From: a virus
Taxonomy: Duplodnaviria; Heunggongvirae; Uroviricota; Caudoviricetes
IMG/VR virus record: IMGVR_UViG_2657245112_000028
Strand: one strand, 5' to 3'
DNA: 4,906 nucleotides
Every line of letters begins with the position of its first letter. Position 1 is the stretch's first letter. A program made the position numbers and the translations under genes. The notes beneath the pieces are model-generated. The model ran no database searches. It saw nothing but the letters and a program-made list of their open reading frames with translations, and was not told where the DNA came from. Of this stretch, positions 1-4,906 are shown piece by piece.

Positions 1-38
1 TATAAATTCTGATTAGCCAGGTAACACAGTGTTATGAC

Positions 39-66
39 AGCCCGCCGGTTCAGGCGGGCTTTTTTG
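39..66 (+). terminator. Rho-independent terminator ending the upstream gene
   Basis: GC-rich inverted repeat agcccgcc (39-46) / ggcgggct (53-60) with a 6-nt loop, immediately followed by a T-run (61-65). Sits just upstream of the stf ribosome-binding site. Confidence 0.75.
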
Positions 67-76
67 TGGGGTGAAT

Positions 77-3037
77 ATGGCAGTAAAGATTTCAGGTGTA
101 CTGAAAGACGGCACAGGAAAACCGGTACAGAACTGCACAATCCAGCTGAAAGCAAAACGTAACAGTACCACGGTGGTGGTGAACACGCTGGCCTCAGAAA
201 ATCCGGATGAAGCCGGGCGTTACAGCATGGACGTTGAGTACGGTCAGTACAGCGTTATTCTGTTGGTGGAAGGCTTCCCGCCGTCACATGCCAGGACCAT
301 CACCGTGTATGAAGATTCCCGACCCGGTACGCTGAATGATTTTCTCGGTGCCATGACGGAGGATGATGCCCGTCCTGAGGCACTGCGCCGTTTTGAACTG
401 ATGGTGGAAGAGGTGGCGCGTAACGCGTCCGCGGTGGCACAGAACACGGCAGCCGCGAAGAAGTCAGCCAGCGATGCCAGCACATCAGCCCGTGAGGCGG
501 CAACCCATGCGACTGATGCTGCAGGCTCAGCACGCGCAGCCAGCACGTCAGCCGGACAGGCCGCGTCGTCGGCTCAGTCAGCGTCTTCCAGCGCAGGAAC
601 GGCATCAACAAAGGCCACTGAAGCATCAAAAAGTGCTGCCGCTGCAGAGTCCTCAAAAAGCGCGGCGGCCACCAGTGCCGCTGCGGCGAAAACGTCAGAA
701 ACGAATGCGGCAGCGTCACAACAATCAGCAGCCACTTCTGCATCCACCGCGACCACGAAAGCGTCAGAAGCTGCCACCTCAGCCCGGGATGCGTCGGCTT
801 CAAAAGAAGCGGCAAAATCATCAGAAACGAACGCATCATCAAGCGCCAGTAGTGCCGCTTCCTCGGCAACGGCGGCAGGAAATTCCGCGAAGGCGGCAAA
901 AACGTCCGAGACGAACGCTAAGTCTTCTGAGACGGCAGCGGGACAGAGCGCCTCAGCTGCGGCAGGCTCAAAAACAGCGGCTGCGTCGTCTGCCAGTGCC
1001 GCGTCAACAAGTGCCGGGCAGGCCTCAGCCAGTGCCACCGCCGCCGGAAAATCGGCAGAAAGCGCCGCATCATCCGCTTCAACAGCCACAACGAAGGCTG
1101 GCGAAGCCACTGAACAGGCCAGCGCAGCAGCGAGTTCTGCTTCCGCAGCGAAGACATCCGAAACGAACGCGAAAGCGTCGGAAACCAGCGCAGAATCCTC
1201 AAAAACGGCTGCCGCATCGTCAGCCAGTTCGGCGGCGTCATCGGCATCATCGGCGTCTGCTTCAAAAGATGAGGCGACCAGACAGGCGTCAGCAGCGAAG
1301 AGCAGCGCCACGACGGCATCCACGAAGGCGACAGAGGCAGCTGGCAGTGCGACGGCGGCAGCTCAGAGCAAAAGTACGGCGGAATCCGCGGCAACGCGCG
1401 CCGAGACAGCAGCTAAACGGGCAGAGGATATTGCATCCGCCGTGGCGCTTGAGGATGCGAGCACGACGAAAAAGGGGATAGTACAGCTCAGCAGTGCGAC
1501 TAACAGCACTTCCGAGTCACTGGCGGCAACGCCAAAAGCCGTTAAGGCCGCGTATGACCTGGCTAACGGGAAATACACCGCACAGGATGCAACGACAGCA
1601 CAGAAAGGGATCGTTCAGCTCAGCAGCGCGACCAACAGCACATCTGAAATGCTGGCGGCAACGCCAAAGTCGGTAAAGGCAGCCTATGACCTTGCTAACG
1701 GGAAATATACCGCTCAGGACGCTACGACAGCACAAAAAGGAATTGTCCAGCTCAGTAGTGCAACCAACAGCGCATCTGAAACGCTTGCCGAGACACCGAA
1801 AGCAGTGAAAGCAGCTAATGATAATGCGAATGGTCGGGTACCTTCTGCCCGTAAGGTGAATGGTAAGGCGCTTTCAGCGGATATAACACTGACGCCGAAA
1901 GATATTGGTACGCTTAACTCAACAACAATGTCATTCAGCGGTGGTGCTGGTTGGTTCAAATTAGCAACGGTAACCATGCCACAGGCGAGTTCTGTTGTTT
2001 CAATTACGTTGATTGGTGGCGCGGGATTTAACGTGGGGTCACCTCAACAGGCAGGTATATCTGAACTTGTTTTGCGTGCAGGTAATGGTAATCCGAAGGG
2101 GATTACTGGTGCTTTATGGCAGCGCACATCGACAGGGTTTACAAATTTTGCCTGGGTCAATACATCTGGTGATACTTACGATATTTACGTTGCAATCGGA
2201 AATTATGCGACTGGTGTAAATATTCAATGGGATTATACCAGTAATGCCAGCGTGACGATTCATACGTCACCAGCATATTCTGCTAATAAGCCGGAAGGGT
2301 TAACGGACGGTACAGTTTATTCACTCTATACGCCATCAGAGCAGTTTTATCCGCCTGGCGCACCAATCCCGTGGCCATCAGATACCGTTCCGTCTGGCTA
2401 TGCCCTGATGCAGGGGCAGACTTTTGACAAATCTGCATACCCGAAACTTGCAGCCGCTTATCCGTCAGGCGTGATCCCTGATATGCGTGGCTGGACGATT
2501 AAGGGCAAACCCGCCAGTGGTCGTGCCGTATTGTCTCAGGAACAGGACGGCATTAAATCGCACACCCACAGCGCCAGCGCATCCAGTACGGATTTGGGGA
2601 CGAAAACCACATCGTCGTTTGATTACGGCACTAAATCCACGAATAACACCGGGGCTCATACGCACAGTCTGAGCGGCTCTACAAGCTCGGCCGGAGCACA
2701 CTCGCACGTTGATGGTCGCAGGTTTAATACAAGCACTTTTAAAGACACCTATCAGTATGGTTCTACAGCTGTCGGAAGTAACTCATACCAGGTACAAGGG
2801 GCGGTTGGTCTGGGCATTGGCACGATGGCGAATACGAACTCTGCTGGCGCGCATACCCACTCACTGTCCGGCACTGCTGCAAGCGCAGGTGCACACGCAC
2901 ATACTGTCGGTATTGGTGCTCATACGCACTCCGTTGCGATTGGCTCACATGGACACACCATCACCGTTAACGCTGCTGGTAACGCGGAAAACACCGTCAA
3001 AAACATCGCATTTAACTATATTGTGAGGCTTGCATAA
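77..3037 (+). CDS. stf: Side tail fibre protein (lambda Stf family), 986 aa from ATG 77 (ORF track opens at GTG 71)
   Basis: N-terminus [20 protein letters not shown]... matches the lambda/lambdoid Stf N-terminus as I recall it. Purine-rich SD-like gtggggtg lies upstream of ATG 77. Architecture is N-terminal attachment domain, A/S/T-rich shaft, three tandem 44-aa fibre repeats, then a His-x-His-rich C-terminal tip. Stop TAA at 3035-3037 overlaps the tfa start (TAATG). Confidence 0.92.
422..1440 (+). repeat. Low-complexity Ala/Ser/Thr-rich shaft region of stf with recurring K(T/S)SETNA quasi-repeats
   Basis: About 340 codons dominated by A/S/T. The motif (A)KTSETNA(K/A)(S/A)S recurs at about 691-720, 826-850, 898-930 and 1150-1180. 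The GC-rich codon bias produces long spurious ORFs in other frames. Confidence 0.7.
1469..1820 (+). repeat. Three tandem in-frame 132-bp (44-aa) phage tail fibre repeats inside stf
   Basis: [12 protein letters not shown](T/A)SE(S/M/T)LA(A/E)TPK(A/S)[21 protein letters not shown] occurs three times. The K-G codons sit at 1472, 1604 and 1736, giving an exact 132-bp period. The third copy diverges after AVKAA. Resembles the 'phage tail fibre repeat' family (from memory). Confidence 0.85.
2561..2956 (+). other. His-x-His motif cluster (7 motifs) in the stf C-terminal tip, a putative metal-binding needle domain
   Basis: HTH 2561-2569, HTH 2657-2665, HSH 2699-2707, HTH 2852-2860, HAH 2894-2902, HTH 2921-2929, HGH 2948-2956, mostly within G-A-H-T-H-S contexts. 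Confidence 0.6.
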
Positions 3038-3450
3038 TGGCATTCAGAATGAGTGAACAAGCACGGACCATAAAAATTTATAATCTGCTGGCCGGAACTA
3101 ATGAATTTATTGGTGAAGGTGATGCATATATTCCGCCTCATACAGGTCTGCCAGCAAACAGTACCGATATTGCACCACCAGATATTCCTGCTGGCTTTGT
3201 GGCTGTTTTCAACAGTGATGAGGCATCGTGGCATCTCGTTGAAGACCATCGGGGTAAAACGGTTTATGACGTAGCGTCAGGGGACGCGTTATTTATTTCT
3301 GAACTCGGTCCGTTACCGGAAAATGTTACCTGGTTATCGCCGGAAGGGGAGTTTCAGAAGTGGAACGGCACAGCCTGGGTGAAAGATGCAGAAGCAGAAA
3401 AACTGTTCCGGATCCGAGAGGCGGAAGAAATAAAAAACAGCCTGATGTAG
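3037..3450 (+). CDS. tfa: Tail fibre assembly protein Tfa, N-terminal 137 aa, ended by an in-frame amber (TAG) codon
   Basis: [93 protein letters not shown]... is near-identical to lambda-type Tfa as I recall it. The start ATG overlaps the stf stop (translational coupling). TAG at 3448-3450 falls where lambda-type Tfa has CAG (Gln). Confidence 0.85.
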
Positions 3451-3621
3451 GTAGCCAGTGAGCATATTGCGCCACTTCAGGATGCTGTAGATCTGGAAAT
3501 CGCAACGGAGGAAGAAACCTCATTGCTGGAAGCCTGGAAAAAGTATCGGGTGTTGCTGAACCGTGTTGATACATCAACTGCACCTGATATTGAGTGGCCT
3601 ACGAACCCTGTCAGGGAGTAA
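3451..3621 (+). pseudogene. tfa: In-frame 3' remainder of tfa downstream of the amber codon, encoding the conserved Tfa C-terminal domain
   Basis: Same frame as 3037-3450, open for 56 codons to TAA at 3619-3621. Encodes [56 protein letters not shown], the conserved C-terminal region of Tfa proteins. No plausible internal restart codon with an RBS. Confidence 0.7.
3456..3576 (+). repeat. Direct repeat copy A (tfa 3' segment), about 89% identical to 4505-4625
   Basis: Ungapped alignment of 3456-3576 with 4505-4625 (offset 1049 bp) gives about 13 mismatches in 121 bp, with an identical ~40-bp core (caggatgctgtagatctggaaatcgcaacggaggaagaaa). Confidence 0.9.
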
Positions 3622-3635
3622 TCATTGGGATTATG

Positions 3636-3684
3636 CCGCAGCACGTCTTAAGCAAGAACGTGCTGCGGTTGGATGCTATTTTTT
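3636..3684. terminator. Stem-loop between convergent tfa (+) and methyltransferase (-) genes; possible bidirectional terminator
   Basis: Perfect 10-bp inverted repeat ccgcagcacg (3636-3645) / cgtgctgcgg (3659-3668) with a 13-nt loop. On the + strand a T-run (3679-3684) follows after a 10-nt gap. The arms are flanked by A-rich sequence on the minus strand. Confidence 0.45.
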
Positions 3685-4344
3685 CCCTGAAGCGGAAAAC
3701 ATTACTACAGTACCTTGAACCTTGGTTTTAACATTCTCGAAATGCTCTGAGAGTATATGTGTTAAGCCTTCTTCGGAATCTTTTGTGTTTGAAAAGATGC
3801 CTTTCTGATTGTAAATGCGCATCAGTTTTTGACCGAAGCTATTGTGCACAACTCCATCGCCAAGAATTGTGGCTCCGTATAGAGTTCCATCGTCAGTTAA
3901 GGCCTGCGCCGCATTGCGTATTACACAGCTTTTTGTAGATATATTTCCAGGCAGGCAGTGAAGAAGGTAAAACATGGAAATGGAATCAAATTGACCATGT
4001 AACGCCGCGGGATAAGGTTCAAAAACATCATGGCTAATTTTATGTTTAATTTTTGATTCCCCAGCCCTTGTAGATGCCGCGTTCAGGCTAGCTTCGTTCA
4101 AATCCATTAAAGATATCAGACTACTCTCAGGTACGTGAGTAAGGTAAAACCCAGTTCCAACACCAATATCCAGATGGTTGTTACCTAAATGTTCCAGAAA
4201 GTGTGGAAGAAGGTGTTCCTTTGTAGGACATCCCCATGCAAGCCGATTTGATACTCCCAAAACCCACCAGTCATAAAGCTTTAGGGTAAGTGGTGTGTAA
4301 ATTTTAGCCCCATCATCTGTGTTTTTTTTCATTAATTTCACCAT
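3676..4344 (-). CDS. Class I SAM-dependent methyltransferase-like protein (222 aa; possibly 218 aa from the ATG at 4330-4332)
   Basis: Rossmann methyltransferase motifs in canonical order: motif I HLDIGVGTG (aa 57-65); acidic post-I residue in LMDLNE about 17 aa later; motif II-like FDSISMFYLLHCLP; motif III-like LTDDGTLYG. Lies in a visibly AT-rich island, convergent with tfa. A GGTGA SD-like element sits 5 nt upstream of the second ATG (M5). Confidence 0.65.
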   Translation of the reverse strand: MVKLMKKNTDDGAKIYTPLTLKLYDWWVLGVSNRLAWGCPTKEHLLPHFLEHLGNNHLDIGVGTGFYLTHVPESSLISLMDLNEASLNAASTRAGESKIKHKISHDVFEPYPAALHGQFDSISMFYLLHCLPGNISTKSCVIRNAAQALTDDGTLYGATILGDGVVHNSFGQKLMRIYNQKGIFSNTKDSEEGLTHILSEHFENVKTKVQGTVVMFSASGKK

Positions 4345-4400
4345 GTTATAGTTTTATTTGTGAATTAAATCAATTATGGCGATGAATTACAAGGGGTTAA
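4345..4400. promoter_or_regulatory. AT-rich divergent intergenic region, likely holding promoter(s) for the methyltransferase (-) and tfa-like ORF (+); includes the AAGGGG RBS for ORF 4401
   Basis: 56 bp of very AT-rich sequence between divergently oriented ORFs. AAGGGG at 4391-4396 lies 4 nt upstream of ATG 4401. No -35/-10 pair could be assigned with confidence. Confidence 0.3.
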
Positions 4401-4733
4401 ATGCTGCCGCAGCATAGCGATATTGAAATAGCCTGGTATGCTTCGATACAACAGGAGCCGAATGGCTGGAAGACCGTCACCACACAGTTCTACATCCAGG
4501 AATTCAGTGAGTATATTGCGCCACTGCAGGATGCTGTAGATCTGGAAATCGCAACGGAGGAAGAAAGATCGTTGCTGGAGGCATGGAATAAATATCGGGT
4601 ATTGTTGAATCGAGTTGATACATCAGTAGCTCTGGGTATGAAGCTGTTTGTAACTCATGTTACAGTAACAGTCATTACTATCTCGAAGGTGCAAAATGCT
4701 GAGAGATCCCCTCATAATTTCCCCAAAGCGTAA
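4401..4733 (+). CDS. Tfa-like remnant/chimeric ORF (110 aa): 5'-truncated divergent tail fibre assembly gene with an unrelated C-terminal tail
   Basis: Residues 37-75 ([38 protein letters not shown]) repeat the Tfa C-terminal domain seen at 3466-3576. An in-frame TAA lies immediately upstream of the ATG, so the N-terminal part of any ancestral gene is missing. After RVDTS the sequence diverges from the TAPDIEWP ending. Has a good RBS. Confidence 0.45.
4505..4625 (+). repeat. Direct repeat copy B (tfa-like 3' segment), partner of 3456-3576
   Basis: See copy A. Same orientation (direct, not inverted). The two copies bracket the methyltransferase island. Confidence 0.9.
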
Positions 4734-4906
4734 CCATGTGTGAATAAATTTTGAGCTAGTAGGGTTGCAGCCACGAGTAAGTCTTCCCTTGTTATTGTGT
4801 AGCCAGAATGCCGCAAAACTTCCATGCCTAAGCGAACTGTTGAGAGTACGTTTCGATTTCTGACTGTGTTAGCCTGGAAGTGCTTGTCCCAACCTTGTTT
4901 CTGAGC
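4712..4906 (-). CDS. Possible 3' end of an unidentified minus-strand gene running off the window (C-terminal 64 aa: ...[44 protein letters not shown])
   Basis: Minus-strand frame is open for 64 codons from the window edge to a TGA (complement of 4712-4714), while all + frames here are full of stops. No recognisable family, and the start is outside the window. Confidence 0.3.

Follow-up and report, generated by a model that had tools for sequence, protein, structure and literature searches.

A lambda-type tail fiber assembly gene very probably inactivated by a recent amber mutation in a decaying Escherichia coli prophage

The 4,906-nt stretch of DNA analyzed here (IMG/VR record IMGVR_UViG_2657245112_000028), referred to as the window, reads from its sequence like the right-hand end of a lambdoid prophage. 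At its left edge, a scan picked out a terminator-like hairpin with a T-run (39 to 70, plus strand), positioned downstream of a lom homologue and before stf. The stem of this hairpin (39 to 60) has eight base pairs, seven of them G-C, and is followed by TTTTTTGTGGG; in matching genomes, the lom-family gene ends just upstream of it. Next comes an intact stf gene for the side tail fiber (77 to 3037, plus strand), an open frame of 986 amino acids (aa) with the Pfam domains phage_tail_N, Phage_fiber_2 (three copies), Collar, and Phage_fiber. In the genomes identical to the window, stf is likewise an intact CDS, with locus positions 3041 to 6001 corresponding to window positions 77 to 3037. The three Phage_fiber_2 repeats are encoded by a 132-nt tandem repeat (1470 to 1785; 2.4 copies, 82% match). 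Upstream of it, Stf contains an Ala/Ser-rich low-complexity stretch of ~300 residues, and repeated GAHTHS/HxH motifs are found near its C terminus.

The gene of interest, tfa, follows directly, its ATG (3037 to 3039) overlapping the stf TAA (3035 to 3037) as TAATG; the same stf-tfa order is seen in lambda and in phage PhiR26_1. Convergent with tfa is a gene for a ybcY-like class I SAM-dependent methyltransferase of 222 aa (3676 to 4344, minus strand; WP_000239881.1; Pfam Methyltransf_12/23/25/11). A 45-aa ORF at 3594 to 3731 (WP_001309429.1, hypothetical according to PGAP), which overlaps the ends of both tfa and the methyltransferase gene, looks like an over-call.

Beyond the methyltransferase gene lies a second, tfaX-like tfa remnant (4401 to 4698, plus strand; ORF 4401 to 4733) matching positions 75 to 121 of the Caudo_TAP profile. 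PGAP describes it as 'tail fiber assembly protein, incomplete, missing N-terminus', and the PhiR26_1 record gives it as a 102-aa 'tail fiber assembly protein'; its N-terminal part is unrelated to that of tfa. The two genes share a direct repeat of 128 nt (88% identity; 3449 to 3576 versus 4498 to 4625), which corresponds to the Tfa C-terminal module and lies on both sides of the methyltransferase gene. We considered repair of the stop codon described below by recombination with the remnant and rejected it: since the repeat begins at 3449, one base past the mutated T at 3448, an exchange would not remove the TAG.

The final 208 bases of the window (4699 to 4906) belong to the outer end of ISVsa5, an element of the IS10 type. 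All genome matches stop at 4698, and positions 4680 to 4906 match copies of 'IS4-like element ISVsa5 family transposase' at 98 to 99%. The ISVsa5 end starts CTGAGAGATCCCCTCATAATTTCCCC, directly after ...GTGCAAAATG at 4698, and truncates the ORF of the tfa remnant. None of 5,426 complete genomes carries an insertion at the 4698 site, and the uninterrupted sequence is seen in the matched locus; the two O111:H11 genomes that match at 100% harbor ~40 ISVsa5 copies elsewhere. An O111:H11-like isolate with many copies of this element is the most likely origin of the window. In PhiR26_1 (PV340555.1, 4501 to 8978), a block of stf, tfa, methyltransferase, tfa remnant, and hydrolase is followed by ompT (omptin). 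As PhiR26_1 is deposited as a complete phage, ompT and its neighbors can travel as right-end cargo of lambdoid phages of this type.

Turning to tfa itself, translation of positions 3037 to 3621 gives 137 aa, a TAG at 3448 to 3450, 56 sense codons, and a TAA at 3619 to 3621, exactly as a sequence-only reading of this DNA had described. Pfam, alignment, and PGAP annotation all point to an ancestral frame of 194 codons (3037 to 3621, plus strand), which we regard as a pseudogene for a tail fiber assembly protein. The run of 56 stop-free codons has a probability of ~0.064 of arising by chance at the base composition of the window, and the open run after the TAG is by itself weak evidence; it is homology that is decisive. 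With Gln restored at the stop, Tfa scores 151.4 bits against the Pfam family Caudo_TAP (PF02413) over profile positions 1 to 130 of 131, compared with 42 bits over positions 1 to 76 of 131 for the still translatable N-terminal fragment of 137 aa (3037 to 3447, plus strand), both above the curated cutoff of 22.1 bits. The TAG at codon 138, set in the context AUG UAG GUA with G as the next base, takes away profile positions 77 to 131. The orphaned stretch behind it, 56 in-frame codons plus TAA (3451 to 3621, plus strand), encodes the conserved Tfa C-terminal helical module and accounts for ~109 of the 151 bits.

The same region stands out in a structural relative. Residues 126 to 191 of the restored query align to residues 112 to 174 of TfaMu, protein U of phage Mu (PDB 5YVQ; E = 1.2e-9), the one relative of solved structure that sequence comparison turned up, and the TAG removes nearly all of this alignable stretch. 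As residues 138 to 191 are gone, the translated product is without a complete C-terminal helical (trimerization) module. The Pfam scores and the TfaMu alignment bear out the earlier suggestion that the peptide downstream of the TAG is the conserved C-terminal region of Tfa. By descent, tfa is best classed as a member of the lambda-type Tfa family whose product is incomplete.

What the truncation would mean for the protein can be gauged from the domain roles set out in the section of PMC9608196 that summarizes North et al. 2019. According to that summary, Tfa proteins are built from modules: a variable N-terminal domain for fiber binding and a conserved helical domain at the C terminus, which mediates trimerization and fiber assembly. 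Since the TAG removes the module to which that section assigns trimerization and assembly, the 137-aa product, although retaining the variable, fiber-binding part, can probably no longer act as a chaperone.

To establish the ancestral state of codon 138, we aligned six tfa sequences. The column in question (412 to 414) reads TAG in the window, O103 RM8385, and O111:H11 88.0502 and CAG in O26:H11 11368, PhiR26_1, and lambda; column 412 is window position 3448, where a C-to-T change turned Gln-138 (CAG) into the amber codon (3448 to 3450, plus strand). The homologues thus confirm the proposal of the sequence-only reading that a Gln codon at this position was altered by a single C-to-T transition. 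At the nucleotide level, tfa is 94% identical to lambda orf-194, 99.7% identical to PhiR26_1 tfa, and 99.8% identical to the intact tfa at the same locus of O26:H11 str. 11368 (WP_000885569.1, 194 aa), from which it differs over 585 nt solely by the C-to-T change at 3448. An intact orthologue at the same locus, one base different at the stop codon, is the hallmark of a nonsense-mutation pseudogene. We also considered, and rejected, a Tfa subfamily that naturally ends at 137 aa: the homologues carry CAG, exact CAG records number 240, and with Gln restored the Pfam match runs over almost the whole profile.

Divergence around the mutation is minimal. Over positions 1 to 4698, the window is identical to O111:H11 88.0502 (NZ_CP077567.1; 100% identity) and differs from O26:H11 11368 at three positions. 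The two differences outside tfa, at window positions 128 and 293, are missense changes in the Stf N-terminal domain (codons 18 and 73; Gln versus Glu and Arg versus Gly, respectively). Within the 168 nt after the TAG, there are no further mutations. Such a mutation-free stretch fits a recent event, while taken alone it would also be compatible with continued selection on the downstream frame. Since only three differences over 4,698 nt separate the window from the CAG sibling, the intactness of the downstream frame is explained by the C-to-T change being recent.

How common is the TAG allele? A 61-nt probe centered on the TAG codon had exact matches in 14 of 5,426 complete E. coli genomes, always at a single location per genome, and the same probe with CAG matched exactly in 240 records; genes related to this tfa were found in 3,618 genomes. 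The 1,790 records in the '95-99%' band of the TAG probe represent one to three mismatches and are not to be read as the CAG allele alone. Carriers of TAG belong to O103, O111:H11, and their relatives and come from different laboratories, hosts, and countries, including USDA RM8385, the CDC 2013C and 2014C strains, CFSAN027343, the Japanese strains 2313 and OkiPb, and a South Dakota bovine O111:H11. In the NCBI, ENA, and Logan collections, the exact 137-aa protein is present on 59 contigs (for example, of O111:H11 CVM9545 and DEC8C), compared with at least 1,000 contigs for the intact 194-aa protein. TAG is a rare, derived minority allele that is reproducible across assemblies, and the lineage carrying it is a small group of cattle- and human-associated E. 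coli. Given their shared locus and near-identical haplotype, the 14 carriers probably trace back to a single origin. Nor is the feature itself new, as RefSeq annotation by PGAP already flags the gene in O103 RM8385 and O111:H11 88.0502 as 'tail fiber assembly protein, pseudo, internal stop'.

The genomes matching the window also show the prophage as a whole. It is integrated at a tRNA-Arg gene with intD and ends beside ompT and envY, which is the argU/DLP12 site. In both O111:H11 88.0502 and O26:H11 11368, ISCro1, a member of the IS66 family, interrupts the gene of the S49 head protease; the IS66 region spans positions 25490 to 29516 of the 88.0502 locus and 26420 to 30446 of the O26:H11 11368 locus. 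Both siblings furthermore have an internal stop in the gene of a K-like C40 peptidase (88.0502 locus, 37909 to 38652; 11368 locus, 38839 to 39582). In 88.0502, this stop was read directly, as TGA after ...DKWQ; for O26:H11 11368, the annotation is our only source. Relative to lambda K, the TGA probably derives from CGA, which would be another C-to-T transition. An IS3 copy sits near the terminase gene in both siblings, and in 88.0502 it lies between iss and terminase. Not on the list of lesions shared with 11368 are two features of 88.0502: a group II intron (ltrA) has entered its IS3 copy, and ISVsa5 interrupts a porin gene. Further disruption in the 88.0502 locus covers positions 12234 to 14654.

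A further pseudogene annotated in O111:H11 88.0502, unrelated to the prophage, is the chitoporin gene chiP (NZ_CP077567.1, locus 48309 to 49715), which has a TAA at codon 294. An amber-specific pattern in this genome was rejected, the other inspected stops being TGA (K homologue) and TAA (chiP).

Being common to a TAG sibling and a CAG sibling, the IS66 and K lesions are older than the change in tfa. Lambda needs K but can form plaques without stf and tfa (PMC10695390). Judged by these lesions, the whole prophage appears to be dead, with particles apparently no longer makeable. The earlier proposal that the prophage is defective for side-fiber assembly holds as far as a defect is concerned, yet the split head protease and the K stop make the damage broader than claimed. 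Because the amber codon would have arisen in an element already incapable of making particles, neutral decay is the simplest account of it.

Other explanations of the TAG have to be set against this one. A sequencing or assembly error, with a true C at 3448 and an intact tfa, had been raised by the sequence-only reading, and a single base apart from an otherwise identical intact allele is indeed the pattern that an error would produce as well. However, T at 3448 recurs in 14 independent complete assemblies and the 137-aa product on 59 contigs, which excludes such an error, and the site (ATG TAG GTA) is no homopolymer; we assign this explanation a vanishingly small probability. Conditional or leaky expression, in which a suppressor tRNA or a near-cognate tRNA-Gln would read the amber codon often enough to supply functional full-length Tfa, has more appealing features: Gln at UAG would yield the exact ancestral protein, the downstream frame is still intact, as is Stf itself, and E. 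coli is known to read through UAG at a low level by means of near-cognate tRNAs. The notion that a supE host would restore the ancestral Gln is accordingly sound in principle, but glnV and glnX carry wild-type CTG anticodons in NZ_CP077567.1, the genome identical to window positions 1 to 4698. Specifically, of the tRNA-Gln genes in its metT operon, the two CUG-type genes (glnV and glnX) read ctg and two others ttg, and supE (glnV with a CUA anticodon) is absent from this genome, in a host suppressor check that covered supE only. The window and the whole 49-kb prophage are devoid of tRNA genes, which rules out a prophage-borne suppressor tRNA. The distribution of the allele also argues against conditional expression, as TAG is rare and derived (14 versus 240 exact CAG records) and marks no conserved recoding site; whereas a programmed read-through signal should be a stop conserved among homologues, this one is confined to 14 near-identical genomes. 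With the head protease split and K truncated, no particles could be made and a restored Tfa would have no task left to perform, and the intact downstream frame finds its explanation in the recency of the mutation (three differences per 4,698 nt relative to the CAG sibling). On balance, functional read-through seems very unlikely to us, and the suggestion that the gene is conditionally expressed is not supported.

Alternatively, the 137-aa fragment might be functional on its own and kept for that reason, either by binding Stf or the cell surface or by hindering the folding of the fibers of superinfecting lambdoid phages. Its reading frame is unremarkable, retains the native start codon, and is coupled to stf, and according to the title of North & Davidson 2021, as cited in PMC9608196, Tfa proteins also bind host surfaces. 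The N-terminal domain is the part that binds the fiber in the Tfa family, according to the domain summary in PMC9608196. Against a retained function, we see no sign of selection, the allele being limited to a few near-identical genomes; the fragment is missing the trimerization module; and late-operon genes of a repressed, defective prophage would not be expected to be much expressed. We consider a selected function of the fragment highly improbable. There is likewise only a slim chance that the fragment is made and acts alone, as a dominant-negative trap for the Stf of superinfecting lambdoid phages or through surface binding, or that rare Gln read-through provides enough chaperone for recombinant or helper phages to use the intact Stf.

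We are thus left, with high confidence, with a plain and recent nonsense-mutation pseudogene in a decaying prophage. The most plausible course of events is that a lambdoid prophage residing beside ompT, at the argU/DLP12 site, carried a lambda-type stf-tfa pair, and that in one sublineage of O26/O111/O103 E. coli a spontaneous C-to-T transition changed tfa codon 138 from CAG (Gln) to TAG. Translation would then stop after 137 residues, keeping the variable N-terminal part and losing the conserved C-terminal helical module, which in the Tfa family drives trimerization of the chaperone and so the folding of the trimeric side fiber. Essential head and tail functions had been lost before the change in tfa, making this mutation probably neutral, and the TAG allele would persist by descent rather than as a regulatory device.

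The interest of the case lies in a clean and datable instance of prophage decay with a known order of events: an IS66 insertion and a nonsense mutation in K came first, the tfa transition later. In addition, the TAG allele could mark a small O103/O111:H11 subgroup. No new mechanism is revealed; this is ordinary gene decay and, as such, adds little beyond bookkeeping.

Several known systems lend themselves to comparison. The allele of O26:H11 11368 (WP_000885569.1) shares locus, neighbors, and integration site and differs in having CAG and thus 194 aa. PhiR26_1 (PV340555.1) has the same order of stf, tfa, methyltransferase, tfa remnant, hydrolase, and ompT, again with CAG and a 194-aa Tfa; its record is that of a complete phage genome, with K-12 MG1655 given as the host, in contrast with the defective window-type prophage.

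A similar arrangement exists on the map of E. coli K-12, where the end of the cryptic prophage DLP12 reads tfaD-ybcY-tfaX next to ompT. The two share the tRNA-Arg/intD site, the gene names essD, rrrD, rzpD, quuD, ybcN, ybcO, and rusA, and a methyltransferase gene plus a tfa remnant beside ompT and envY. Compared with K-12 DLP12, the prophage described here is far more complete, its head and tail gene sets being full and its stf intact.

The N-terminal domain of TfaMu is not alignable to the tfa product; the modular design of a variable N-terminal and a conserved C-terminal part is nevertheless common to both. Lambda Tfa (orf-194, NP_040605.1), like the window gene, has a 194-codon frame (94% identity over 585 nt), belongs to Caudo_TAP, and directly follows stf with overlapping stop and start codons. 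The two differ at codon 138, which is CAG (Gln) in lambda and TAG in the window, leaving residues 1 to 137 only, and in their surroundings, as the window tfa sits in a chromosomal prophage and is followed by a methyltransferase gene and a tfa remnant, whereas lambda instead has ea47. The closest analogy is the stf frameshift of laboratory lambda PaPa, for which the relevant passages of PMC9608196 and PMC10695390 cite Hendrix and Duda 1992. There too a point lesion abolishes the side fibers, the stf-tfa module remains recognizable, and the loss is tolerated because the module is dispensable; yet lambda PaPa is a viable phage with a frameshift in stf, whereas what appears to be a nonviable prophage carries the nonsense codon in tfa described here.
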